Below are positions 6,609 through 56,825 of a stretch of 64,000 nt of DNA, piece by piece. Numbering within the stretch: the first letter of the stretch is position 1; each line of letters opens with the position of its first letter. Source of the DNA: a phage; the sequence record PZ534515.1, one strand, 5' to 3'. The notes beneath the pieces were generated by a model. That model saw only the letters and a list, made by a program, of their open reading frames with translations. It was not told the origin of the DNA and made no database searches. Position numbers and translations under genes: made by a program.

Positions 6609-6630
6609 CAGGGGCTTTATAGCCCCTTTT
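6609..6630 (+). terminator. intrinsic terminator-like hairpin
   Basis: ggggct-ttata-agcccc followed by tttt. Confidence 0.5.
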
Positions 6631-24766: not shown

Positions 24767-25022
24767 TAGTTATAAAAGAGAGGGGTTCATACCCTTCTTT
24801 GAAGAAAAAAGTTTAAATAAATTTCAGGAAGAGTGTTTGACAAAGGTTGATAGGTTCTATAGAATGCTCTACATGAAATGTGATGGAGGTGTTGAGGTAG
24901 AAGAAAAGTTCCATCACAGCATTATCACAGTCACTATTACTATACCTCAACATAATATTGGTTGGCTGTTTGTAATAAAAGAAAATGTGTTTGAATATCA
25001 AGTATATCGGAGAATATCATGA
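24729..25022 (+). CDS. hypothetical protein
   Basis: 97 aa ORF. Confidence 0.35.
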   Translation: MRMQMTARSKLSDSYKREGFIPFFEEKSLNKFQEECLTKVDRFYRMLYMKCDGGVEVEEKFHHSIITVTITIPQHNIGWLFVIKENVFEYQVYRRIS

Positions 25023-25175: not shown

Positions 25176-25204
25176 TTGACAATAGAGTATCAACAAACTA
25201 GAAT
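25176..25204 (+). promoter_or_regulatory. sigma70-like promoter
   Basis: TTGACA, 17-nt spacer, TAGAAT, about 35 nt upstream of 25241. Confidence 0.55.
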
Positions 25205-38641: not shown

Positions 38642-39523
38642 ATGAAAACTATTATTGAAGCCGTTGTCACCGCACAAGAGAAATTCTTCCACACAGAAAA
38701 ATTTAATATCATCCAATTCCCATCTGGAGAAATTGGTGGAAACTTCTCTGAAGACTTTGTTAAGTTTACTGAGCGTAATGCTGGTAAGATTGACAATGTT
38801 ATATTGACTGTACAGGGATATGATAAAGATACACTGTTTGCATTAGCTTTGGCTAAGGATGCCGTTGACAGTCTTGTTCCATACAAATCAGCGATGAAAA
38901 CCGTTGTTTTCGGGTTCTTACCGAATGCTCGATATGACCGCCATATATTCAAAGGTGATTCAGCAGCACTGAAAGCCTTTGCCAACCTCGTTAATGCAAT
39001 GGGTTTTGATGCAGTATGTGCTCTTGACCCTCACAGTAATGTTGCAGAAAACTTATTTAAGTGTTTTCAGAGCATGAAGCAAAAAGATGTAGCAGCACAC
39101 TTTGCAAGTGACCCACGCATTGATTTCTTGGTAGCCCCAGATGCAGGTGCAGCTAAGAAGACTGAAGAGACTGCTAAAGAGGTGGATAAACCATATATCA
39201 CAATGTCTAAAGTACGCAACCTTAAGACTGGTGAAATTACTGGTATGCGAATCCTTGATGCTGTTGATTTGACCGATAAAACTGTCATGATTCTTGATGA
39301 TATTTGTGATGGAGGCCGAACCTTCATAGAAGCAGCTAAACATCTTCGTGAAGCAGGTGCAAAACGTGTGGAACTCTATGTAACTCATGGTATTTTCTCT
39401 AAAGGTGTTGAAAACTTACTTGACAATGGTATTGACCATATCTACACTACAAACTCTTTAGGGGAAGCTAAAGACCGTGGATTAACACATTATGCCCAAG
39501 TTACTGTAGTAACCATTGATTGA
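38642..39523 (+). CDS. prs: ribose-phosphate pyrophosphokinase-like protein (candidate ADP-ribose pyrophosphokinase, NARP1 Adps)
   Basis: PRPP-binding loop VMILDDICDGGRT; ATG at 38642 after agagagagag (track uses TTG at 38621); directly upstream of the NAMPT-like gene. Confidence 0.7.
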   Translation: MKTIIEAVVTAQEKFFHTEKFNIIQFPSGEIGGNFSEDFVKFTERNAGKIDNVILTVQGYDKDTLFALALAKDAVDSLVPYKSAMKTVVFGFLPNARYDRHIFKGDSAALKAFANLVNAMGFDAVCALDPHSNVAENLFKCFQSMKQKDVAAHFASDPRIDFLVAPDAGAAKKTEETAKEVDKPYITMSKVRNLKTGEITGMRILDAVDLTDKTVMILDDICDGGRTFIEAAKHLREAGAKRVELYVTHGIFSKGVENLLDNGIDHIYTTNSLGEAKDRGLTHYAQVTVVTID

Positions 39524-39532
39524 AACTTTATA

Positions 39533-39554
39533 GGGGCTTCAAAGCCCCATTTTG
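39533..39554 (+). terminator. hairpin/attenuator between the prs-like and nadV-like genes
   Basis: ggggctt-ca-aagcccc then attttg; same hairpin recurs at 44655. Confidence 0.45.
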
Positions 39555-39568
39555 AGAGAGATTAAAAG

Positions 39569-41350
39569 ATGACTAAATCACTTTATGCAGTACCAGCAGG
39601 TTTAAATGCAGATGCTTACAAATCTGGTCATGTTTACCAGTACCCTAGTGCAACAGATTACTTGATGTTTAACCTGACACCACGTAGTGATAAATGGTTT
39701 AACAGCCCTTTAGCAATTGATGGTGTAGTAGCTTTTGGTATTCAACGTTTTGTTAAAGATTACTTGATAGACCACTGGAATACCACCTTCTTTGAACGTG
39801 ACAAAAAAGAAGCAATTGATGAAATCTTAGAAGTCATGAACGGTGTTCTGGGTAAAGATGCTATTGGTCGAGAACATTGGGAAGCACTTCACGACTTAGG
39901 TTATCTACCAGTTGAAGTATACGCTGTAGAAGAAGGCACAGTTGTCCCTATGCGTGTTCCAATGATTGTATTCCAGAACACTGTTTCAGGTTTCCATTGG
40001 GTAGCAGGATATCTGGAAGATGCTTTCTCTGCTGAGATTTGGAAGGCTTGTACCATTGCGACTATTGCATTGCACTACAAACGTATCTGTAAGAAGTGGT
40101 CTGACCTTACTTGTGACAATGACTTGCATTTACCTTATCAGTGCCATGACTTTGCTATGCGTGGTATGTCCGGCTTTACCGATGACGCATTTAACGCTGT
40201 AGGTCACTTAACCAGCTTTAAAGGGACTGATAGCTTCCCTGCTGTATATACAGCTAAACGCATCTATGGACAGTCCTACCCAATCTCTGAGATTGGTGGT
40301 TCTGTACCAGCCACTGAACACTCTGTCATGTGTGCAAACATTGCTTGGGAAGGTGGTAATGAATTGATTGAAGAGGAAAGACGCTTTAGAGGTGAGTTGC
40401 AAACCTTCCGTCGTTTCTTAACAGAAACTTACCCAACTGGTATTGTAAGTATTGTTTCAGATACTTATAATTTCTGGAGAACTGTATCAGTGATACTACC
40501 AGAACTCCGTAAAGAGATTATGGAACGTGATGGCAAACTGGTAATTCGTCCTGACTCTGGCGACCCTGTACATATTGTCACAGGTTATAAAGCAATCCAC
40601 TTAGAGTGTGCTAAAAAGGCTTATTACGAACACCTAAGCAAGCTGGAAGCCAGCGACACAATGTTGAATGCTGTTCTGAACATGAAGCTTGAAAACATCA
40701 ACTACGGCATTGCTGGGTGGCTACTGTCAGAAGGTTACGAAATGGTTGTTGACAGAGAAGACTTTGAAGTTGCCGATACAGTGATGTTGAAAAATGCTTA
40801 TATGGTTGGTTCTGCAAACGTTGTAACACGTCCTGTAGCAGAGATTGATGGAGCTATCAAGACACTGTATAACATCTTTGGGGGAACTATCAACTCTAAA
40901 GGTTTTAAAGTACTGGATGAGCACATCGGACTTATTTATGGTGACTCTATCACGTTGGAACGTGCAAACGAAATCTTGAAGCGTTTGTATGAAATGGGTT
41001 TTGCAAGCTCTAACGTGGTGTTTGGTGTAGGTTCTTACACTTACCAGTACATGACTCGTGACACTTTTGCATTTGCTGTCAAAGCAACTCTTGCAAGCAT
41101 TGGTGGTAAAGAGATTATGCTTGCAAAAGACCCTAAAACAGATAGTGGTGTTAAGAAGTCTGCTTTTGGTGGTGTAGCACCTATGTGGGATGGTGATAAG
41201 CTGAAAGCTGTAGATGGCTATGGATTCCAGAGCTTTGCAGATGTGCTTGAACATCCAGCTTGTGCTTTACGTTTAGTCTTTAGTGACTCTGAGCAGTTCG
41301 GTTACACATCTCTTGGTGATATTCGAAATAATATTGACAAGCAACTTTAA
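39569..41350 (+). CDS. nadV: nicotinamide phosphoribosyltransferase-like protein (candidate NARP1 Namat)
   Basis: 593 aa; NAMPT-like N-terminus (DAYKSGH); paired with the prs-like gene. Confidence 0.75.
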   Translation: MTKSLYAVPAGLNADAYKSGHVYQYPSATDYLMFNLTPRSDKWFNSPLAIDGVVAFGIQRFVKDYLIDHWNTTFFERDKKEAIDEILEVMNGVLGKDAIGREHWEALHDLGYLPVEVYAVEEGTVVPMRVPMIVFQNTVSGFHWVAGYLEDAFSAEIWKACTIATIALHYKRICKKWSDLTCDNDLHLPYQCHDFAMRGMSGFTDDAFNAVGHLTSFKGTDSFPAVYTAKRIYGQSYPISEIGGSVPATEHSVMCANIAWEGGNELIEEERRFRGELQTFRRFLTETYPTGIVSIVSDTYNFWRTVSVILPELRKEIMERDGKLVIRPDSGDPVHIVTGYKAIHLECAKKAYYEHLSKLEASDTMLNAVLNMKLENINYGIAGWLLSEGYEMVVDREDFEVADTVMLKNAYMVGSANVVTRPVAEIDGAIKTLYNIFGGTINSKGFKVLDEHIGLIYGDSITLERANEILKRLYEMGFASSNVVFGVGSYTYQYMTRDTFAFAVKATLASIGGKEIMLAKDPKTDSGVKKSAFGGVAPMWDGDKLKAVDGYGFQSFADVLEHPACALRLVFSDSEQFGYTSLGDIRNNIDKQL

Positions 41351-41363
41351 AAGTATATGATAA

Positions 41364-41387
41364 GAGGCTCCTATGGGAGCCTTTTTA
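41364..41387 (+). terminator. intrinsic terminator
   Basis: aggctcc-tat-gggagcct then ttttt. Confidence 0.6.
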
Positions 41388-41403
41388 ATTTCTGGAGAAT
41401 GCT

Positions 41404-41748
41404 ATGGACAACCTTTCCATATGGTTTAACAAGAAACCTGTACAACCGAAATACTTACAAGTTGCCTATACAGACATCCTTGAAGTTCTCGGTAAAGAAA
41501 AGTTTGAAAAGTTTTGTGAAGGCATCTACAATCATCACTGCCAATTTGCTACAAAAGAAGGTATGTTTGTCATAGAACAGTTCTTTGGCAGAGACCCAGA
41601 TGACTACGAAGAGATTAGCTTTGTAATGAAATACATGATAGAGTATATTGAAAATCGTGGATTCGAAGTTAATCCTGAATTTTATGAGCACGAGGGTGTA
41701 CCTTTAGCAAAAGGTTTTGATGGAATACTTGTTAGCTGGACTTGGTGA
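41404..41748 (+). CDS. hypothetical protein
   Basis: 114 aa ORF. Confidence 0.45.
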   Translation: MDNLSIWFNKKPVQPKYLQVAYTDILEVLGKEKFEKFCEGIYNHHCQFATKEGMFVIEQFFGRDPDDYEEISFVMKYMIEYIENRGFEVNPEFYEHEGVPLAKGFDGILVSWTW

Positions 41749-42089
41749 AAATTATGAAAATCAAAGAAATGAACATCAATATTGTCTTAGAAGAACGCTG
41801 GGAGAACATCAAGAAGCCTGAAAAGGGTCATAAGTTCCTCAACAAAATCTTAGTAGCAGCTAAAGAAGAACTGACTGGCAAGGTTGCAGCAGCAATTACA
41901 ATAAAGGTCTGTGTAAAAGGTCTTCCAGACAATCACCAATTTGCACTTGACGAGTTTAAAGAAAGCTTCTACAATCCAAACAAACAGATGCTTGAAAGTA
42001 ACTTTGCAGTATCTACAAGTATCGTCCATGATAGAAGCTTCATCCTTTACAAGAATATGAGAGGTGAGTCATGCAAGCATATTGGATAG
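41742..42089 (+). CDS. hypothetical protein
   Basis: 115 aa ORF. Confidence 0.45.
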   Translation: MVKIMKIKEMNINIVLEERWENIKKPEKGHKFLNKILVAAKEELTGKVAAAITIKVCVKGLPDNHQFALDEFKESFYNPNKQMLESNFAVSTSIVHDRSFILYKNMRGESCKHIG

Positions 42090-42247
42090 AAATTTTACTG
42101 TCACTTGGTAGTGTAGCAGTGTTCGTTTACCTTCTTTGCAAGTACTATGCAGAGCACAAAAAATGTGACTTCTGTAATGGGGAAGGTTATACAAGAACAG
42201 GCTGTTGCCCTATATGTGGTGGTTCTGGTAAAATGTTTAATAAGTAA
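42071..42247 (+). CDS. small membrane protein with C-terminal zinc ribbon (58 aa, below track cutoff)
   Basis: My own translation: hydrophobic N-terminus then CDFCNGEG...CPICGGSG. Confidence 0.3.
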   Translation: MQAYWIEILLSLGSVAVFVYLLCKYYAEHKKCDFCNGEGYTRTGCCPICGGSGKMFNK

Positions 42248-42275
42248 TTTAACAGCAAACTAAGAGGAAAGTATT

Positions 42276-44642
42276 ATGCGCATGGTAAATGACCACGCAG
42301 AAGTGATTAAGAGTTCAACTTCTTTAGAGACGTCTCAAGCACAGATTACAATGACACCCGAAATGTTCAGCCTTTTAAGTTCTGGTGTATACACCTTTAA
42401 AGAAAGGGCAGTTATTCGTGAACTGTCATGTAACGCAGTAGATGCTCAGAAAGAGGCTGGAAAAGAGAACATTCCGTTCCATGTGCATTTACCTACTCGT
42501 TTTGAGCCTTACTTTGAAGTTCGTGATTTTGGAACTGGATTGACTCATGATAAAGTTATGAGTTTGTATCTAAACTATGGGGCTTCTACGAAGAATGACT
42601 CTAATGACTACATTGGTGCAATGGGTATCGGCTCAAAATCCCCATTTGCAATTGCTCAGTCATTCACAGTGTCCAGTTATGTTGATGGTGTTGTTAATAA
42701 GTACTCTGTTTATCTTGAGAATGGTATTCCTCAAGTAACTAAGCTGACCACCAACCCAACAAAAGAACCTAATGGTTTAGCTGTACGTGTAGCAGTTGCT
42801 GACCATCGTATCTCAAAGTTCTTTGAAGAGGCTGGTCACGTATACTCATACTTTGCTGTAAAACCGGAAAGTAATATCGAGTATGACGATGTATTATCAG
42901 ATATGAATGTCATTGCCCGTGAAGAAGGTGTTTATGATGCCATGATTCATAAGCAAAGCTGGCGTTCTAGTGGTAACAGGACAGAGTTTAATGTGGTGAT
43001 GGGTAACATTGCCTACCCTGTTAACATGGAAGCATTACTTGGTGATGATTTCTTTAAAGTCTTGCCAGAATTTTTCCGTAGGAGCGTAGACCTTGTAAAC
43101 ATCTACATGCCTATTGGCTCAGTTGCTATTGCAGCTTCTCGTGAAGCATTGCAGATGAATGACACGACAAAAAATGTTATCATTGAGGCTACTAAAAAGA
43201 TAACTGAAGCAATTACAAAGGATGTTATCAAGAAAGTTAACAGCCAACCTACACTCATGGATGCTGCACAGGCTTATGCTGAGTTACGTTTGAACTCACG
43301 AGAGATGTTTAATGCTGTGTGTCCAAAGCTAGAGTGGGGAGGTGTTAAGCTTGATTCTCTGGAAGAAGAATTACTAAATATTCGTCGTGGAATTATCTAT
43401 GCAGAAGACGGCTCAGTCATCTATGAACGTGACGGTAAAGGTAATATTAAGGTTGATAGGAACGGAAACAACATCCCTAAAGTAGATTATCTTTATGACC
43501 CAGTTGCTTATGTTAAGTTCAACTCTTTAGAGAGTAAGATTCGTGCGACATCACTTTCCTACACTCAAGAGGCAAGTATGTTCAATATTTTTGGCGCAAT
43601 GCGTAAAAGCCAAATTGAACAGTTTTTGTTTGTTATAAATGACCGTCGCAATAAAAACGGTACTGAGAAGACTGTAGGACGCAATCAAATCTTGCGTGGT
43701 GCATGTCGAGACTATGCCAGTGAGTCAAGTCTGTTTCACAGATACAATGGTATCGTCTTTGTATTCTCTACTGAGAAAGAGTTAGACGACCTAATCAATC
43801 TACACAAACTTGATAAAAGCTTGTTAAAGATTGTAAAGATGTCTGATAAGGAACATCATTATCAGCGTAAAGAAGCTGTAAGAGGTGTTGTAAAACTCTG
43901 GAAAGCTGTTCCAGCAGAAGGTGTAGCTTCCTATAAAGAGGTGTCAGAAGACTTAGACACAATTGAAGAGCCTCAACTTTATATCAAGGCAGTAGGTGAT
44001 ACTGTTGATGGTGAATGTTTTTGCTCGTCTCCAGAAGATGTAGCTAAGTCAGTTGCCAATGTCATTGAAAAGACAGTCTATGTTTTCCGAAAAGCAAATT
44101 GGAAAAAGATACCAGAAGACTGGATTGAAGTAGATGAGAAGCTCTTGAACGACAGCTTAACTGATGTTCACTGGATTAATCATAACAGGTATATGACACG
44201 TATCTATATGAATGGTGTCCTAGACCTTACAAGCAGTTGGATTATTGCCAGAAACTTTACGTTCAATAACAGGAAGATTTCTCGCGGTTATTGCTATTCA
44301 CGAGATACAAACAAAACTATCTTCTTAGAAGGTAATGAAGATGCTGTTGAGGCAATGTTTGGTAAAATCCAATACGTTGCTGCACCGTTTGCATACACTT
44401 ACACTATTAGTCGGTTGCAAACTTTGAAAGAGTGCCTTGACAATGATACAAAGCTGTACAAGAAAATTAAGAAAGCTGGTGACCGTATGGTCATTAAGGT
44501 GACAAACTATCTTTCAAAAAGAAAACAAGAAAACTTCTTGCTTTCTCATTTAGATTGGAATAAAGTGTCACCCATCGAAGTGAGTAAGTTCTTAGGCTTT
44601 GATGTGAAGTGTGTTCCAGAAGGGACTACAATTTACGATTAA
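42276..44642 (+). CDS. rIIA: rIIA-like protein (GHKL/Hsp90-type ATPase domain)
   Basis: N-terminal GHKL motifs RELSCNAVDA, RDFGTGLTHD, IGAMGIGSKSPF; 788 aa; followed by an rIIB-sized gene. Confidence 0.65.
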   Translation: MRMVNDHAEVIKSSTSLETSQAQITMTPEMFSLLSSGVYTFKERAVIRELSCNAVDAQKEAGKENIPFHVHLPTRFEPYFEVRDFGTGLTHDKVMSLYLNYGASTKNDSNDYIGAMGIGSKSPFAIAQSFTVSSYVDGVVNKYSVYLENGIPQVTKLTTNPTKEPNGLAVRVAVADHRISKFFEEAGHVYSYFAVKPESNIEYDDVLSDMNVIAREEGVYDAMIHKQSWRSSGNRTEFNVVMGNIAYPVNMEALLGDDFFKVLPEFFRRSVDLVNIYMPIGSVAIAASREALQMNDTTKNVIIEATKKITEAITKDVIKKVNSQPTLMDAAQAYAELRLNSREMFNAVCPKLEWGGVKLDSLEEELLNIRRGIIYAEDGSVIYERDGKGNIKVDRNGNNIPKVDYLYDPVAYVKFNSLESKIRATSLSYTQEASMFNIFGAMRKSQIEQFLFVINDRRNKNGTEKTVGRNQILRGACRDYASESSLFHRYNGIVFVFSTEKELDDLINLHKLDKSLLKIVKMSDKEHHYQRKEAVRGVVKLWKAVPAEGVASYKEVSEDLDTIEEPQLYIKAVGDTVDGECFCSSPEDVAKSVANVIEKTVYVFRKANWKKIPEDWIEVDEKLLNDSLTDVHWINHNRYMTRIYMNGVLDLTSSWIIARNFTFNNRKISRGYCYSRDTNKTIFLEGNEDAVEAMFGKIQYVAAPFAYTYTISRLQTLKECLDNDTKLYKKIKKAGDRMVIKVTNYLSKRKQENFLLSHLDWNKVSPIEVSKFLGFDVKCVPEGTTIYD

Positions 44643-44647
44643 AGTGT

Positions 44648-44677
44648 TTGACAAGGGGCTTCAAAGCCCCTTAGAAT
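44648..44677 (+). promoter_or_regulatory. promoter with hairpin occupying the spacer
   Basis: TTGACA, spacer aggggcttcaaagcccc (perfect hairpin), then TAGAAT. Confidence 0.5.
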
Positions 44678-44721
44678 AGCCTCACAAAATGATTTATTAA
44701 CTAACAAGAGAGAGTAATAAG

Positions 44722-45831
44722 ATGACTACTAAAACTAAAGCACAGATTGACGCAGAAATTTACAAACTGGTTAAAGAAGGTAAGCTGACTAAAACAGCTA
44801 TTGCACAGAAGTTCAATACTTCAACCCGTTCAGTTGGTCGTGCTGTAGAGCGTCATGAAGCAACCTTAAAAGGCAAGAAAAAGGTAGCTTCGACACCAGC
44901 TAAGAAGACTTTGAAGCAAGTTGCTAAGACCTTTAAAAAGAAAGCTGACAAACCAGTTGAAAAGGTCGTTAAAGAGTCTGTACAGAAAGCTCCAGTAAAT
45001 AAACTGCATGAAGCTATGCAGAAAGATGACAAGATTGAATACATGATTACTGGTGACTCTGTAATTATGACTTATGGTTCAGAATCTGAAATTGTTGAGT
45101 CTACTCATCCGAACTATCAAGAGATTGTAGTTCATGTTGTGAAAGGTGAGTTCAAGAAAGCCTTTGAACTGATGAATATTCGTAAGTCTATCGAAAACTT
45201 CACTCAGGGTGCTATCACAATCAAAGGTGACAAGTTATTCTACGGTGCTGTTGAGATGCGTTCTACTCTGGTTGACCGTATTCTTCACATGATGAAGACT
45301 GGGGATAAAGGTTTTGAACGACTTGTAATGTTCTTCGAAAAACTGATGGAAAATCCATCTAAAGATTCTGTAGAACAACTTTGGGGATTTGTATCTCACC
45401 TTGATGTTGAAATTGATGAAGAGGGTTACATCATTGGTTGGAAGAAAGTCTCTACTCGTGAAGGCAAGCTGGTTGACTCACACACCTACAAAGTGCCTAA
45501 TGATTTGGGTAACATTGTAGAAATGCCACGTTGGATGGTTGATAATAACCGTAACGTAACTTGCTCTCAAGGTCTTCATGTTGGTGCTTGGGATTATGTT
45601 CGTTGCTTCTCAGGAGATACAATCCTGAAGGTTCGTGTCCATCCACGAGATGTTGTATCTGTTCCGACTGATTACAACGATATGAAGATGCGTTCATCCC
45701 GTTATGAAGTTGCAGCAATCGTTGATAATCAACGTAAAGTTCTGAAAGCATGGGATGGTAAGACTGAAGCTTTGCATGTCATCGTTGGTACTGCTGGGGA
45801 ACTCATCTCTCAACGTAAACGTGAAATCTAA
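44722..45831 (+). CDS. rIIB: rIIB-like protein
   Basis: 369 aa, immediately downstream of the rIIA-like gene; call by synteny and size only. Confidence 0.45.
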   Translation: MTTKTKAQIDAEIYKLVKEGKLTKTAIAQKFNTSTRSVGRAVERHEATLKGKKKVASTPAKKTLKQVAKTFKKKADKPVEKVVKESVQKAPVNKLHEAMQKDDKIEYMITGDSVIMTYGSESEIVESTHPNYQEIVVHVVKGEFKKAFELMNIRKSIENFTQGAITIKGDKLFYGAVEMRSTLVDRILHMMKTGDKGFERLVMFFEKLMENPSKDSVEQLWGFVSHLDVEIDEEGYIIGWKKVSTREGKLVDSHTYKVPNDLGNIVEMPRWMVDNNRNVTCSQGLHVGAWDYVRCFSGDTILKVRVHPRDVVSVPTDYNDMKMRSSRYEVAAIVDNQRKVLKAWDGKTEALHVIVGTAGELISQRKREI

Positions 45832-45848
45832 TAAGTAATTTCTTAAAA

Positions 45849-45870
45849 GGCTGCTTCGGCGGCCTTTTTT
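45849..45870 (+). terminator. intrinsic terminator
   Basis: ggctgc-ttcg-gcggcc then tttttt. Confidence 0.55.
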
Positions 45871-45931
45871 ATTTGTATTTTGTGCAGAGTGCTGTATAAT
45901 TGTGGTCACGATAAACTAAACAGGAGAACCA

Positions 45932-46480
45932 ATGAAGAAGTTGATTCTAGGTTTGTGCTTAATGTTTACAGCACACTTATCTTATGCAGTTGACTGCCCA
46001 GAGCTATCAATTAGCCAAAAAGTAAACATGTTAAAAGCTTACCAGTATGGTGAGAATAATATGGGTAAAGGTTGGGGTATCACTCTAGCTGCTATAGCCT
46101 TACAAGAGTCAGAGTTAGGTCTGAATGTAGAGAATAAAAAGACACATGATTATGGTATCTTCCAGAATCACTTGAAGACTGTTGTAAAGCGTAACAAAAT
46201 CAGTCCTAATGTGGCTAAAAAGAAACTCTTAAAAGATTTTGACTATGCTGCAAAGGAAACACACAAAGAGCTTGAGTTTTGGACGAAGGTACATGGTCAA
46301 CCAAAGTCAAAGAAGACTTTACAAAAAGTTTTAGCATCATATAATGCTGGGTATTCGTACAAAATTCCTAAAGCTAAGAAATACTCTCAAGATGTCTATA
46401 ACAATATGAAAGTCATCGCTCAATGTGAATTTGCAACAAACATTTCTAAGGTAAATCATGAAAAAATTAAGAAAGTCTGA
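45932..46480 (+). CDS. secreted lytic transglycosylase-like protein
   Basis: Signal peptide MKKLILGLCLMFTAHLSYA; ES...YGIFQ motif reminiscent of the SLT catalytic region. Confidence 0.4.
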   Translation: MKKLILGLCLMFTAHLSYAVDCPELSISQKVNMLKAYQYGENNMGKGWGITLAAIALQESELGLNVENKKTHDYGIFQNHLKTVVKRNKISPNVAKKKLLKDFDYAAKETHKELEFWTKVHGQPKSKKTLQKVLASYNAGYSYKIPKAKKYSQDVYNNMKVIAQCEFATNISKVNHEKIKKV

Positions 46481-47153
46481 TGAAGTACTGTGTCATGCTT
46501 ACGACTTGCATCCTCATGAGTTAGGTCTTGATTCCTGTATATGGACTCCAGAACAGTGCAGGGATTTTGAAGACACTGCAAGAGAAGTTGTATGTTCACT
46601 TGAAGAGTTCCACACGTCAGAACCAGTTGTGAACGTTGTGGACAAAGAGACTGGACAATCTCTAGGTGTAAGACGTGACAGTTTAGTCATAGTCAATAAA
46701 GACCTTGTAGAAAAAGGTAACCTCATCTTAGCAGATATTGATGGTGTTCTTACAAATTTTAATCACGAAGATTGCTCAACGGAATTGACTGATGGGTCAT
46801 TCTCACAGTACACTAATCTTCTTGACTCTGTAAGAGCAAAACCAACGTATGTTTTTAGTATTATTGATGCAATTGCTAATCATGCTGCCATTGGACTCTT
46901 GACAGCGAGAGGTGAATCTCAGAGAATACCTACTGAGATGTTTTTAAGGCATAACATAGAGCACGATTACATGCTTTTTATGCGTGGTTTTGGAACTAAC
47001 TCTATAAATGCAGAAAGTTTGAAAGTTAGGATGATTCAGTCTTGCATTCTTCCTTACTTTGATATAGTATGTTTTATAGAAGATACAGAGAATAATGTTC
47101 AGAAGGTAAACAGAATCCTTCCGCACATTAAAACTATGTTAGTAAAACATTGA
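46458..47153 (+). CDS. HAD-like hydrolase (putative phosphatase/nucleotidase)
   Basis: DIDGVLT resembles HAD motif I; start uncertain. Confidence 0.35.
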   Translation: MKKLRKSDEVLCHAYDLHPHELGLDSCIWTPEQCRDFEDTAREVVCSLEEFHTSEPVVNVVDKETGQSLGVRRDSLVIVNKDLVEKGNLILADIDGVLTNFNHEDCSTELTDGSFSQYTNLLDSVRAKPTYVFSIIDAIANHAAIGLLTARGESQRIPTEMFLRHNIEHDYMLFMRGFGTNSINAESLKVRMIQSCILPYFDIVCFIEDTENNVQKVNRILPHIKTMLVKH

Positions 47154-52519: not shown

Positions 52520-52845
52520 TGATGGGCATCACTGCAATCATCGCCATTATAGCACTTTATAAGGCTTACAGCGCCTACAATCTGGCAAGTAAGGCAATCA
52601 CGCAACAGGTCAATAATAGCCTTGTAATGAGCTTTCTGGAGCGTTTAAGTGATGAGCAAATAAAGCGGCTAGAAATGAGCTTCAGATTCAAAGCGAAAAC
52701 CTATCAGATAAGTGATATCTTCAAAGATGATTTTCAGTTAGTCGATGATTATAATTCACTGATAAATGCTTTAAATATCAGTGACTTAAAAGACTACTAC
52801 GCTGTAATTGTTCAAGAATTGAGCAAACGAAAAAATTTCTCTTGA
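52513..52845 (+). CDS. small membrane protein 6
   Basis: 110 aa, N-terminal TM-like segment GITAIIAIIALY; translationally coupled. Confidence 0.45.
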   Translation: MLMMGITAIIAIIALYKAYSAYNLASKAITQQVNNSLVMSFLERLSDEQIKRLEMSFRFKAKTYQISDIFKDDFQLVDDYNSLINALNISDLKDYYAVIVQELSKRKNFS

Positions 52846-52932
52846 TTTTGGTTTTTAAAACAAGTAAATTACTAATCAACGGGAGGGATGACCTCCCCAC
52901 TAAGTAAAGTCCTTAAACTAGGAGATTAGAAA

Positions 52933-53205
52933 ATGTATACTACTAACAACGGTCGTACTCTAAATGTAACTTTGCGCCACTATGTGAACGGTGTAATGCA
53001 CTTCGAGGATTTACAAGCCGAACAACATATCTTAGATTGGCAACTTGCAGGACTCCAAAAAACTGCTACAGGATACGGGAAAAAGATTCCAACCAGTTGG
53101 AAAGTATACTACGAAGGCCGTTTGCGCAGAATTTATCAAGATGTGCATAGCAATAGCGCAACAAGTTACATCATGGTAAAAGGCAAAAAGCTGCATTTAG
53201 TATAA
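52933..53205 (+). CDS. small early-type protein 7
   Basis: 90 aa ORF behind type B cassette. Confidence 0.5.
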   Translation: MYTTNNGRTLNVTLRHYVNGVMHFEDLQAEQHILDWQLAGLQKTATGYGKKIPTSWKVYYEGRLRRIYQDVHSNSATSYIMVKGKKLHLV

Positions 53206-53291
53206 AGTACTTTACAAGGGGCTTATAGTTCGATAAAGTAAGCCCCAGATAAAGAGCTTTACCACTAAATCCTAAATTGGAGAACTTAAAA

Positions 53292-53696
53292 ATGGCTATT
53301 AATAATCGCGAGTTATCAATCTTAAAAGCACGTTTGACCGTTAACCGGATTAATGTTATTACGTCATCAGCACCGGACGAAACATTGCACAACATTATTG
53401 GGAAGATTCAAAGCGTTATCTTAGACGTTGAAAACGTAAAAAACTCATTGGCTGACGTTGCAGCAGGTATCACGCTAGACGGTGCACAATATGAAATGAC
53501 CGACATGTTAGGCAAATCTAAGGTAATGAATAAAGAGCTTGATTTGAAAATGTTTCGATTTGCTGTTAAAGTGTGGCTATCTGTCGAGTATGACGCTAAT
53601 TTTGCAATCGCTGACTTTTTCGCAACATGGTTGCAACGTAACTTAACAAATCACGATTTTCGTAATATCTGTGATGCAATTTACGCAGAACTATAA
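53292..53696 (+). CDS. small early-type protein 8
   Basis: Start at the ATG that follows the conserved leader (track start 53277 lies within the leader). Confidence 0.5.
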   Translation: MAINNRELSILKARLTVNRINVITSSAPDETLHNIIGKIQSVILDVENVKNSLADVAAGITLDGAQYEMTDMLGKSKVMNKELDLKMFRFAVKVWLSVEYDANFAIADFFATWLQRNLTNHDFRNICDAIYAEL

Positions 53697-53797
53697 AAAT
53701 TTTTGTTGACACTGGTTTTCAGATAGATTAAATTACACATCAACGGGGCTGGAATGACCTTCCCCACTAAATAAAGTCCTAAACTGGAGATTCAAAA

Positions 53798-54001
53798 ATG
53801 GCTATTATTAACGGTTTAACCATTGAAACTACACACATCAAAGATATTAAAGTTGGTGATGTAGTCCTTTCCCACGGCGTAGAGAAAACTGTTACTGCAA
53901 AGGATATCAAAGAGGATTCTTTCATGGGTAGGACTCTCTTCGGTGATTCTTATTGCTTAGGTTATCTTGCAGTTTTAAAAGTTGTCAAAAATAACCGATA
54001 A
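53798..54001 (+). CDS. small early-type protein 9
   Basis: 67 aa ORF behind type B cassette with TTGACA-17-TAAATT promoter at 53705. Confidence 0.5.
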   Translation: MAIINGLTIETTHIKDIKVGDVVLSHGVEKTVTAKDIKEDSFMGRTLFGDSYCLGYLAVLKVVKNNR

Positions 54002-54093
54002 AGTACTTTACAAGGGGCTTAAAAGTTGATATCTTAAGCCCCAGATAAAGAGCTTTACCACTAAATCAAGTCCTTAAACTAGGAGATTCAAAA

Positions 54094-54636
54094 ATGAAAT
54101 GCTTTCACGGTACTACTCAAGAAAATTTTATCAACCTGATTAATAACGGTGATAAGCCATCAGGTGCATGGAATTGTTCGGATATGGATGGGAATTTTTA
54201 CGTTTATCCAGAAAATAAAATCTATGGCGACGATGAGGAAGAGATAATCTCTGAAGGTATCCAGCAAGCTCTGGGCAATGCCGCTATCACCGCAGCTTTC
54301 CAGATGAAAACCCAAAATATTGTTATCTTAGAACTTGATATTCCAGAAGATGAGTTAAACGATGATTATTCTTGTGATAATATGTCTGGCGTGGCAAGTT
54401 TTACAGAATATTTCGATTTAAACTGGATTAAAAAGGTTTACACCACTGAATTTAATGCTATGTTTTCACCATTTTGTCTGCCTTCACTGGATAACCCGAA
54501 TTTAAGCTATATTGACGAGTCTCTGGAACTTCTCGCTAAAAGCGTTCAACAGTCCGACAGTATTCAAGTTTTTTGTGACATCATGGACACACTGACGGGA
54601 AACATCATAGAAAGAGATTTAAAGAGCTTTTTCTGA
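54094..54636 (+). CDS. small early-type protein 10 (acidic)
   Basis: 180 aa ORF behind type A cassette. Confidence 0.5.
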   Translation: MKCFHGTTQENFINLINNGDKPSGAWNCSDMDGNFYVYPENKIYGDDEEEIISEGIQQALGNAAITAAFQMKTQNIVILELDIPEDELNDDYSCDNMSGVASFTEYFDLNWIKKVYTTEFNAMFSPFCLPSLDNPNLSYIDESLELLAKSVQQSDSIQVFCDIMDTLTGNIIERDLKSFF

Positions 54637-54702
54637 AAACCTATACAATCACCTTATAAACACTATTCAGCCCCTGTAAGGGGCTTTTAAGAGGCTTAAA
54701 TC

Positions 54703-54936
54703 ATGCTTACAACTGTTTATCTCATCCTTTCTATTTGTAACGGTCATTCATGTGATTTTAAAGGGCTTGAGGAGTTTACAGGAAGTAAAGAAAATGCCGT
54801 TCAGGTCTGTCAGATAGCAAGACAAGACTACCCCGCCAGTGATGACATTCAGTGTTATTTTAAGACAGAAGACAGCGACGGCGTTTATTTTGACAGCGTT
54901 GATGGTCAATATGAAATTATCATTGAAAAAGACTAG
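54703..54936 (+). CDS. small early-type protein 11
   Basis: 77 aa ORF; preceded by hairpin agcccctgtaaggggctttt rather than a cassette. Confidence 0.45.
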   Translation: MLTTVYLILSICNGHSCDFKGLEEFTGSKENAVQVCQIARQDYPASDDIQCYFKTEDSDGVYFDSVDGQYEIIIEKD

Positions 54937-55025
54937 ACAAGCCTGATAAAAGTCTGTAAATTGTCAATCAACGGGAGGGATGACCTCCCAACTAAACAAA
55001 GTCCTTAAACTAGGAGATTCAAAAA

Positions 55026-55366
55026 TGGCTTATGTAACCGTAATTACCAATAAAGAAGATTCATCTTGGTCAACTCAAGTAAGTGACAAGATGTCACCTA
55101 TGCAGTGCCTAAAATACTTTGAGCAATGGAACAAAGGTGAGGAAACAAGCCCCTTTCAAGTAATGCAGGTTATTCATACAGACAACGAAGGGAATAAAAC
55201 TGTTTTGAATAGTGAGTACTATGCAACCAGATTCGAAACGAGAAGTAAAGCAATGAGGCTCTTACGTGAATCCGGTTACTCTCATATTGCCGCGCTAATC
55301 TGGGATGACCTCCTAAAAAGTCAGCGTATCAGCTATGTAAAACCTGAAAAAATATTTATCAGCTAA
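55026..55366 (+). CDS. small early-type protein 12
   Basis: Start at the leader ATG 55026 (track start 54980 is an in-frame read-through of the leader). Confidence 0.5.
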
Positions 55367-55585
55367 TCAATAACTTACAAAAAACTTTTAAAAAAGTGTT
55401 GACAATGCCCCTTGACATTGGTAACTTTGTTCGAGGGGGTTTATCTAAAAGGATTCACTTAAAAGATTCTTTATAGATAAACTTAAAAAATTGCTTGCAA
55501 TCAGCTATCAAAACAAGTAAATTACTAATCAACGGGAGGGATAACCTCCCCACTAAGTAAAGTCCTTAAACTAGGAGATTCAAAA

Positions 55586-56116
55586 ATGAACAAATTTCAA
55601 GCTATCAACTACATTCGCTCAATCCATGTAATGTCAAAGCCTGTTAAAGACACCTATGAATTTCGTTGCAATGGTGTACACTTTGCAACCATCACTAAAT
55701 CAGAAAACGGGACTTATTACATTCATCGTCGTAATGTTGCAACCGTTGTAGTCTCTCACTTTATGCAAGCCGTTGCGGAACTCCTCCCGATGTTTTTAGG
55801 GCTTTACTTGGATGAGTGTAAGAATATCCGTAACCACGTTAAAAGCCTTTTAAACGGTTATAAAATGGCTTATGAACGTTCTATTCATAATTTGAACAAG
55901 TTCTATAAAGCCCCTGAAAACACCGTATCAATGGCATACGCTGTAAAGGGTGAGGCGGTGAGTCTCTTCGAAGTGGAAGAAATCGAGCTTTATGACCATC
56001 GCCCCAATGGTTACGCTAAAACTCTCGGTGAAGGTTTAACGTTTAACATCAAGAACTTAGAAAAAACTTTAAGAGATATTGAAAAAGATATTGACGAGAC
56101 AATCAAAAATCTGTAA
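55586..56116 (+). CDS. small early-type protein 13
   Basis: 176 aa ORF behind type B cassette. Confidence 0.5.
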   Translation: MNKFQAINYIRSIHVMSKPVKDTYEFRCNGVHFATITKSENGTYYIHRRNVATVVVSHFMQAVAELLPMFLGLYLDECKNIRNHVKSLLNGYKMAYERSIHNLNKFYKAPENTVSMAYAVKGEAVSLFEVEEIELYDHRPNGYAKTLGEGLTFNIKNLEKTLRDIEKDIDETIKNL

Positions 56117-56181
56117 ATTATCAATCAACGGGAGGGATAACCTCCCCACTAAGTAAAGTCCTTAAACTAGGAGTTATCAAG

Positions 56182-56445
56182 ATGGAAAACGTAGAATTAA
56201 CCACACTTTTACAAATTGCAACCGATAAAGAAAACGTAGCATTAATTCACCGCATCGAAAGTGATTTGTTCAATGGTGAAATCATCAAAGAGTCTTACGA
56301 AGTTGTCGGATTCAAAGATGGTAAAACGTTTGGATTCTTTGACCTCGACAAAGGCAACGCTGTTACAAATTACGATGTTTTATCTTGTGAGATTCTTACA
56401 AAATACAACGAAAAAAGGCTTGCAACATACACCAACATGCAGTAA
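56182..56445 (+). CDS. small early-type protein 14
   Basis: 87 aa ORF behind type B cassette. Confidence 0.5.
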   Translation: MENVELTTLLQIATDKENVALIHRIESDLFNGEIIKESYEVVGFKDGKTFGFFDLDKGNAVTNYDVLSCEILTKYNEKRLATYTNMQ

Positions 56446-56511
56446 ATTACTAATCAACGGGAGGTAATGACCTCCCCACTAAACAAAGTCCTTAAACTAG
56501 GAGATTCAAAA

Positions 56512-56760
56512 ATGGCAACTATCCGCGCAACTGTTAACGAATTTGGCTTCTACTCTCTGGATGTTAAATTTGACCTTGTAGGCACTGACAACGCCTTTGA
56601 AATGGTGAAAGGTCTTATCAGTCAGACCATCAAAGACTATAATCCTTCTGATGAGTTCTGGAAAGAAACAAAACAGGAAGTTCTTAAAGATGGTTACACT
56701 TTTCACTATTGGGGAGAAAAAATCGTCTCCCTGTACTACAACAAACAAGATTATAACTAA
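56512..56760 (+). CDS. small early-type protein 15
   Basis: Start at the leader ATG 56512 (track start 56467 is leader read-through). Confidence 0.5.
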   Translation: MATIRATVNEFGFYSLDVKFDLVGTDNAFEMVKGLISQTIKDYNPSDEFWKETKQEVLKDGYTFHYWGEKIVSLYYNKQDYN

Positions 56761-56798
56761 TCGACGCAGCGGGGCTAAATAGCCCCAGATACCTTTAC

Positions 56799-56824
56799 AG
56801 CCCCTTTCCAATAGGGGCTTTTTT
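56799..56824 (+). terminator. strong intrinsic terminator ending the small-gene array
   Basis: agcccct-ttccaat-aggggct followed by tttttt; preceded by a second hairpin ggggctaaatagcccc. Confidence 0.7.
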
Positions 56825-56825
56825 A

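Follow-up and report, generated by a model that had tools for sequence, protein, structure and literature searches.

A promoter with a hairpin spacer between rIIA and rIIB of a Felix O1-like phage: a predicted PeSL-type composite signal

Introduction

The genes rIIA and rIIB of the phage in sequence record PZ534515.1 lie on the same strand with a gap of 79 nt, and within this gap a stem-loop fills the spacer of a promoter. What does a hairpin do inside a promoter, and which of the two genes does it serve? In this study, the locus was analysed within a stretch of 64,000 nt of the phage DNA (hereafter the window). A preliminary description from the sequence alone had recognised the gene pair at 42276-45831 and the hairpin between the promoter boxes. 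The present analysis covers the gene identities, the protein folds, the sequence element and its conservation.

The gene pair itself is not new. Over 42276-45900, the DNA shares 96-97% identity with many genomes of Felixounavirus (Ounavirinae), such as those of the Salmonella phages SapYZU01 and BPS15Q2, and the two open reading frames (ORFs) are named rIIA and rIIB in annotated Felixounavirus records. At the protein level, rIIB shows 100% identity to its counterpart in E. coli phage vB_EcoM_Shy, whose genome is opened immediately upstream of rIIA, as was that of Felix O1 (PMC3185647). As an anti-defence pair, this rIIA/rIIB locus of a Felix O1-like phage is ordinary, and its rII assignment was already known.

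We believe that the junction of this rIIA-rIIB module carries a composite signal of the promoter-early stem-loop (PeSL) type, which would act as a promoter for rIIB and as an RNA stem-loop on the rIIA message. The regulation is predicted, and we put the probability of this reading at roughly 0.6. PeSLs were described in phages phi1 and RB49 by Arbiol et al. (2010) as strong sigma-70-like promoters with a stem-loop, often a polyG followed by a polyC. Five subclasses were defined by the position of the stem-loop, one of them in the stretch that separates the -35 box from the -10 box (PMC2839356).

The promoter with a hairpin spacer

The ORF coordinates of both genes were confirmed. The rII unit is arranged as follows.

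42276..44642, + strand: rIIA gene, 788 aa
44648..44653, + strand: -35 hexamer TTGACA of the rIIB promoter, kept in relatives
44653..44672, + strand: stem-loop AAGGGGCT-TCAA-AGCCCCTT filling the spacer, by folding (7-bp core at 44654-44671 and one pair into each hexamer)
44672..44677, + strand: -10 hexamer TAGAAT, with only TAGAAT or TAAAAT in relatives
44684, + strand: predicted transcription start, an A 7 nt past the -10, by standard sigma-70 geometry
44722..45831, + strand: rIIB gene, 369 aa
45845..45878, + strand: canonical intrinsic terminator at the end of the rII unit, GGCTGCTTCGGCGGCC and then a T-run (score +20), which is Felix O1 terminator t2 (PMC3185647)

The preliminary description had placed TTGACA and TAGAAT at 44648..44677 with a hairpin filling the spacer, and folding, shuffling and conservation all agree with it. 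Its coordinates gave the spacer, AGGGGCTTCAAAGCCCCT, the right length of 18 nt, whereas the sequence written out had 17 nt because one T had been dropped. The element TTGACA-N18-TAGAAT matches the promoter consensus at 11 of 12 positions. The spacer folds into 7 bp with a 4-nt loop at -11.6 kcal/mol, and the stem gains one more A-T pair where it runs into the hexamers (7-8 bp in total). An extended stem in which the hexamers pair with each other was rejected, as one A-T pair is followed by mismatches. The -10 box is 44 nt upstream of the rIIB ATG, and a start at 44684 would give a 38-nt leader without the hairpin.

The arrangement agrees with that of PeSLs: sigma-70-like boxes at a spacing of 16-18 nt stand between genes, upstream of the Shine-Dalgarno (SD) sequence and start codon, and a stable G-run/C-run stem-loop lies in the promoter spacer, as in the spacer subclass. 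With up to 2 mismatches, the 18-mer was matched 5 times, against 0 in 100 shuffles. Among the 6 sites of the window that match the promoter consensus at 11 or more of 12 positions, about 5e-4 spacers with a perfect 7-bp hairpin were expected. The junction element is therefore not expected by chance. An Rfam search of 39000-46500 at E<=1 returned no match at the hairpin or the junction.

Two further TTGACA-N17-TAGAAT sites are present in the window at 24837-24865 and 25176-25204, 340 nt apart. They share the unusual -10 box (TAGAAT) of the rIIB promoter, and their spacers do not fold.

Conservation of the junction element

Thirty IMG/VR loci encoding close relatives of rIIB were fetched, and 29 had an rIIB identity of at least 76%. 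In all 29, including the locus of phage phiSUSP1 (L026), the -35 box reads TTGACA (once TTGACT), the stem is GGGGCT..AGCCCC and the -10 box is TAGAAT or TAAAAT. Both -10 forms retain the TAnnnT core, and the spacing was 17-18 nt in all cases. Variable columns were then counted over 26 distinct junction sequences. The 5' arm had none (0/6), and the 3' arm and the -10 box had one each (1/6 and 1/6). The counts were 3/4 in the loop, 4/5 from the stop codon to the -35 box, 18/23 downstream of the -10 box and 16/21 in the SD region. The MAFFT count for the -35 box (5/6 variable) is an artefact of the shift between 17- and 18-nt spacers, and the raw sequences read TTGACA or TTGACT.

The Mooglevirus-like lineage has the optimal spacer of 17 nt, keeps both hexamers and carries a GNRA loop (GAAA or GCAA). 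In BPS15Q2, a C-to-T change in the 5' arm keeps a G-U pair and breaks the DNA palindrome. At a locus with 58% rIIB identity (L031/L044), TTGACA is followed by a different hairpin that overlaps the -10 position. Erwinia Kolesnikvirus (59% rIIB identity) has a homologous hairpin after rIIA, GGGGCTG-GAAA-CAGCCC and then TTCTTAAAC, without promoter hexamers. The two genes abut in T4-like phages and in most of the distant rII loci; in the latter, only a few bases lie between them, and a promoter would not fit. Independent rIIB promoters without a hairpin were found in other lineages, for example TTGACA-N17-TATAGT in L097.

Judged by this conservation, the promoter with its hairpin is real and under selection. 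Since termination does not involve a -35 box, the fact that this box is conserved speaks for use as a promoter. Because Kolesnikvirus has the hairpin without the hexamers and the distant rII genes abut, the hairpin after rIIA looks older than the promoter, which looks to have been built around it in Felixounavirus and Mooglevirus.

The loop (44661-44664) deserves a separate remark. Across loci L002-L030, it reads TCAA in 9 distinct sequences and the reverse complement TTGA in 12. There were no single-step intermediates, and in two haplotypes both states were seen with the same 120-nt flanks, a pattern that resembles recurrent, stem-mediated inversion of the loop.

Proposed mechanism

From these data we infer that the rIIB promoter is used, where it starts, and how the stem-loop affects the rIIA transcript. 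At the DNA level, the host sigma-70 RNA polymerase would use TTGACA-N18-TAGAAT and start near 44684. The resulting rIIB-only mRNA would end at the strong terminator at 45845. In RNA arriving from upstream through rIIA, the GC-rich spacer would fold into a 7-8 bp stem-loop just past the rIIA stop codon and would probably attenuate or pause transcription, or shield the 3' end of the rIIA message. Read-through and its own promoter would then both supply rIIB, and the dosage of the two proteins would be uncoupled. RIIB of phage T6 alone triggers a Lysobacter gasdermin system and is toxic when expressed in E. coli (PMC10312443), which provides a rationale for controlling rIIB dosage separately.

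The promoter's own transcripts would start past the hairpin, at about 44684, so the stem-loop would act only on RNA coming from rIIA. The stem-loop of PeSLs likewise acts on RNA from upstream and not as a modulator of its own promoter (PMC2839356). The idea, put forward for testing in the preliminary description, that the hairpin may modulate the activity of the promoter itself is a less likely reading than action on upstream RNA.

The hairpin tail (CCCCUUAGAAU; TAGAATAGCC; UAGAAUAGCC) is a poor U-tract, with nT 0.92 and d -38 on a d'Aubenton-Carafa-type score, against nT 3.3-4.4 and d +2 to +20 for the canonical terminators of this genome. The GC-rich stem is not directly followed by a U-rich tract, and the terminator scan did not report it. 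A bidirectional terminator was also rejected: no T-run follows the stem on the reverse strand, and the minus-strand ORFs nearest to it, inside the rII genes, are short. Because the U-tract is poor (score -38), attenuation, pausing or 3'-end protection is expected, and the hairpin is probably an element of this sort and not a strong terminator.

Several points weigh against the composite signal. The U-tract score just given makes a terminator in the strict sense unlikely, and that reading was rejected on it. The spacer of 18 nt is one nt longer than optimal. In two related loci, L002 and L030, one stem pair is lost through a G-to-A change, and hence the stem is not absolutely required. The spacer type was found once in the window and bases 1-45000 of phage Shy, compared with about 50 PeSLs per genome, and is not part of a large family here. 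Moreover, no transcript maps (5' or 3' ends) of Felix O1-like phages were found in the literature searched. A general literature search for terminator-in-spacer promoters gave no usable result.

Alternative explanations

The hairpin alone might be functional, as an RNA element that ends the rIIA message (a weak terminator, a 3'-end stabiliser or an RNase processing site), with the hexamers unused and rIIB expressed only by read-through from upstream, as at most rII loci. The abutting genes of most of the distant rII loci and the Kolesnikvirus hairpin without hexamers fit this explanation, and TTAGAAT can be read as a degenerate U-rich tail. The preliminary description had also noticed the same hairpin between two other genes, where the 16-mer is indeed identical, and a related hairpin is found at another gene junction.

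39533..39548, + strand: second copy of the rII hairpin, GGGGCTTCAAAGCCCC (16-mer), at the junction of the prs-like and nadV-like genes, with ATTTTG after it and without promoter hexamers
6610..6627, + strand: related hairpin AGGGGCT-TTAT-AGCCCCT, AGGGGCTTTATAGCCCCT, followed by TTTAAGAGG

Both stand alone at gene junctions without promoters and are followed by short T-runs. However, TTGACA precedes the stem, a position in which it plays no part in termination, and it is nevertheless kept in 29/29 loci (once as TTGACT) and in the 58% locus while its neighbours vary. Only TAGAAT or TAAAAT occurs, with its TAnnnT core, at a spacing that is always 17-18 nt, and lineages such as that of L097 have rIIB promoters that are free of hairpins. 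We consider it unlikely that the hairpin works alone.

A second explanation is that the palindrome acts as DNA in an active promoter, either as an operator for a dimeric protein (the candidate being the helix-turn-helix (HTH) of rIIB, with autoregulation) or as a supercoil-dependent cruciform. A perfect inverted repeat of 16-18 bp exactly fills the promoter spacer, the N-terminal HTH of rIIB, of the sigma-r4/LuxR/DeoR type, is well supported, and the two loop orientations (TCAA and TTGA) on identical flanks suggest that, during replication at least, the arms form pairs in DNA. Yet the same palindrome stands at two promoter-less junctions, the Kolesnikvirus hairpin is kept without a promoter, and T4-like phages keep the rIIB HTH with no such palindrome. 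An arm of 7-8 bp is also short for cruciform extrusion. The GNRA loops of relatives and the G-U variant of BPS15Q2, which breaks the DNA symmetry, point to RNA; for these reasons, and because of the hairpins at the two promoter-less junctions, an RNA role is favoured over a DNA operator. A DNA-level role is very improbable, and there is only a slim chance that the HTH of rIIB, a putative DNA-binding domain, recognises the spacer palindrome as its operator so that rIIB sets its own dosage. If this were true, sequence-specific DNA binding would be the first defined molecular activity of rIIB, and the control of its own dosage could matter because T6 RIIB is toxic in E. coli and triggers bacterial gasdermin defence.

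It is highly doubtful that the cassette matters chiefly as a place where genes are shuffled as modules by recombination, the role proposed for PeSLs, and not in rII regulation: an identical 16-nt hairpin at two loci 5 kb apart, the HNH endonuclease gene at the prs/nadV junction of BPS15Q2 where the hairpin is absent, a five-copy promoter/stem-loop cassette family among small early ORFs and the PeSL-PeSL recombination shown in RB49/phi1 (PMC2839356) are in its favour, but the rIIA-rIIB adjacency is invariant in every related locus examined, so that no shuffling is seen at the junction, 16 nt is a very short recombination substrate, and the conservation of both hexamers would be left unexplained.

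The rIIA and rIIB proteins

The domains of the two proteins that the text below refers to are located as follows.

42357..42800, + strand: ATP-binding core of the GHKL (Bergerat) type in rIIA, limits approximate (aa ~28-175), by alignment, profile match and model secondary structure
44737-44874, + strand: N-terminal HTH of rIIB, aa 6-51, confidently modelled

The 788-aa protein had been described as carrying the GHKL/Hsp90-type ATPase motifs of T4 rIIA, and the present results confirm this. In a PHROG profile search, aa 1-770 matched phrog_612 ("RIIA lysis inhibitor", E 1e-188). BLASTP gave 31% identity to Tequatrovirus rIIA over aa 24-317 (E 6e-36), in line with homology to T4-type rIIA, and detected no similarity to it in the C-terminal ~470 aa. 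In an alignment of 39 homologues, E49 and N53 of motif I (RELSCNAVDA) were invariant. In motif II (RDFGTGLTHD; D84-x-G86-x-G88), D84 and G86 were invariant and G88 was conserved in at least 90%. G114, G117, G119 and K121 were invariant in motif III (G114-xx-G117-x-G119; IGAMGIGSKSPF). A profile of the same alignment matched the TRAP1/Hsp90 N-domain in the PDB (E 2e-4). Together with the secondary structure of the model, these matches indicate that the rIIA N-terminus has the GHKL (Bergerat) fold with motifs I-III. Pfam searches with the single proteins gave only sub-threshold hits (HATPase_c, E 0.12; HTH, E 0.0013) and were insufficient, and the domain assignment of rIIA and rIIB needed profiles, PHROGs and structure. 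The N-terminal ~320 aa of rIIA is a GHKL ATPase plus transducer-like module, and the C-terminal half is lineage-specific. By fold, rIIA is an Hsp90/MORC-like GHKL ATPase, and its enzymatic activity is predicted; in the rII literature searched, no documentation of ATP hydrolysis by any rIIA was found.

The 369-aa product of the second gene had been taken for rIIB by its size, and a profile check now gives a clear rIIB match (phrog_609, E 4e-89). Its aa 11-339 align with the 312-aa Tequatrovirus rIIB at 37% identity (E 2e-62), so the homology to T4-type rIIB extends across the conserved C-terminal domain. Homologues carry PF26926, relatives were found by tblastn in 2,911 phage records, and GenBank records among the matches listed label the 369-aa ORF rIIB. 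The predicted structure had an overall pLDDT (predicted local distance difference test score) of 85.4. It begins with an HTH of three helices (aa ~6-51), which is followed by a linker that is Lys-rich and disordered (aa ~54-89, pLDDT <50) and by a conserved mixed alpha/beta domain (aa ~94-369). The HTH is conserved as far as T4-like rIIB, and in 11 of 39 relatives it was picked up by Pfam HTH models. In the rII literature searched, no mention of a DNA-binding role for rIIB was found.

One observation concerns the "RIIB" profile phrog_609 itself. Of its 1055 positions, 31-299 are matched by the rIIA N-terminus and 755-1048 by rIIB. The profile apparently contains fused rIIA-rIIB-like proteins or mixes both families.

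Work on close relatives shows a counter-defence function of the pair. The preliminary description held that rII proteins counter exclusion of the RexAB type and proposed plating an rII mutant; in effect, others have already done this in relatives. Knockdown of rIIA or rIIB in phiSUSP1 makes this phage sensitive to lambda RexAB (PMC11879866), and phiSUSP1 rIIB is 80% identical to the rIIB studied here and is preceded by the same junction element. In the Felixounavirus Bas63, deletion of rIIA or rIIB cuts plating 1e4-1e5-fold on a qatABCD host, and plating is largely restored by complementation (PMC11482910). By analogy, rIIA and rIIB would protect the present phage from abortive-infection systems such as RexAB.

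Other hairpins, promoters and terminators

A census of the window and of bases 1-45000 of phage Shy, between them covering most of the genome, gave no spacer-type composite other than the one at the rIIB junction. Composites of another kind were found at two sites.

41334..41390, + strand: likely upstream boundary of the rII unit, TTGACA-N16-TATGAT followed by a terminator hairpin (41365..41382) and TTTT, with its function predicted
63205-63150, - strand: TTGACA-N17-TATCTT followed by a canonical terminator hairpin and T-run, from the census

At both, the terminator hairpin begins 3 nt past the -10 box. A start about 7 nt past the -10 box would fall inside the 5' arm, and such transcripts would escape a terminator that stops transcripts from upstream.

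An intergenic cassette occurs in five copies before small ORFs at 52800-56540 of the window, with hairpins at 52881, 54973, 55534, 56130 and 56459. It has the form cTTGAnn-N17-TAAATT-actaatcaac-GGGAGG-gatga-CCTCCC-cACTAAGTAAAGTCCTTAAACTAGGAGATTcaaaaATG, and reads as a putative sigma-70-like promoter, 5'-leader stem-loop and strong SD sequence, that is, as PeSL-like with the hairpin downstream of the -10 box. After the last small ORF of this block, three consecutive hairpins stand at 56712-56825: GGGAGA..TCTCCC, GGGGCTaaatAGCCCC, and AGCCCCT..AGGGGCT with TTTTT. The second and third have the GGGGCT/AGCCCC arms of the rII hairpin, in both orientations.

The prs/nadV junction (39524-39568) also differs between close relatives. 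In BPS15Q2 (L001, 5130-5645), it lacks the GGGGCTTCAAAGCCCC hairpin and contains a 492-bp HNH endonuclease gene instead. This indicates that the junction is a point of insertion or deletion.

Significance

The practical value of these results is modest. Anyone engineering Felix O1-like phages, or deleting either rII gene (compare Bas63 and phiSUSP1), should note that a separate promoter probably serves rIIB. A deletion of rIIA that keeps the junction need not be polar, and a deletion that removes 44648-44677 may lower rIIB expression. The Felix O1 genome paper stated that it was unknown how transcription passes the many terminators (PMC3185647). Promoters built around, or directly against, stem-loops are a proposed answer to the question of how so many hairpins are passed. 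The results also extend the PeSL-type architecture from T4-type phages (Straboviridae) to Ounavirinae.

Comparison with known systems

The classical rII genes are those of T4 (Tequatrovirus), which counter lambda RexAB and have the same gene order and strand as here. The rIIA N-terminal GHKL region is 31% identical between T4-like phages and this phage, and rIIB is 37% identical over almost its full length, including the N-terminal HTH. Relatives of this phage also show the same RexAB-related phenotype (PMC11879866). In contrast, the C-terminal ~470 aa of rIIA have no detectable similarity to T4 rIIA, rIIB has an extra Lys-rich disordered linker of ~55 aa, and in the T4-like genome the two genes are 11 nt apart, without an intergenic promoter or hairpin. 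In fold and ATP-binding motifs, aa ~28-320 of rIIA resemble the GHKL ATPases with a transducer (Hsp90/TRAP1, MORC, topoisomerase VI-B, GyrB/ParE and MutL), although the identity is just 11-16% and the domains after the transducer are unrelated.

For Felix O1, Whichard et al. (2010, PMC3185647) list rho-independent terminators, among them t2, the one after rIIB, and hairpins of the GGGGC..GCCCC type. The predicted promoters given in the text of their paper (P11, P41, P45, P102 and P117) include none between rIIA and rIIB, and the terminator table, as far as it is available, lists nothing between t2 and the genome start.

PeSLs are the closest known counterpart. In phi1, RB49, PST and nt-1 (PMC2839356; Comeau et al. 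2014, PMC4122927), a G-run/C-run stem-loop stands between the boxes, as at the rIIB junction. This is one of the two commonest PeSL positions, and both kinds of element lie between a stop codon and the next SD sequence. Promoter and terminator activity were each shown on selected phi1/RB49 cassettes and stem-loops: the wild-type PeSL206/205 clone gave ~13,000 Miller units, and the PeSL211/210 stem-loop lowered downstream lacZ to about the level of the rrnB terminators (PMC2839356). Such activity is demonstrated for the phi1/RB49 PeSLs only, whereas the rIIB junction element is known from its sequence. The element also differs in belonging to another phage family (Andersonviridae, Ounavirinae) and in being conserved and core-like; PeSLs sit before ORFans in hyperplastic regions, and the junction element is not part of a multi-copy family flanking variable ORFans. 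Overall, the architecture is not new, and the hairpin-in-spacer promoter adds a member from a new phage family to the PeSL class already described.

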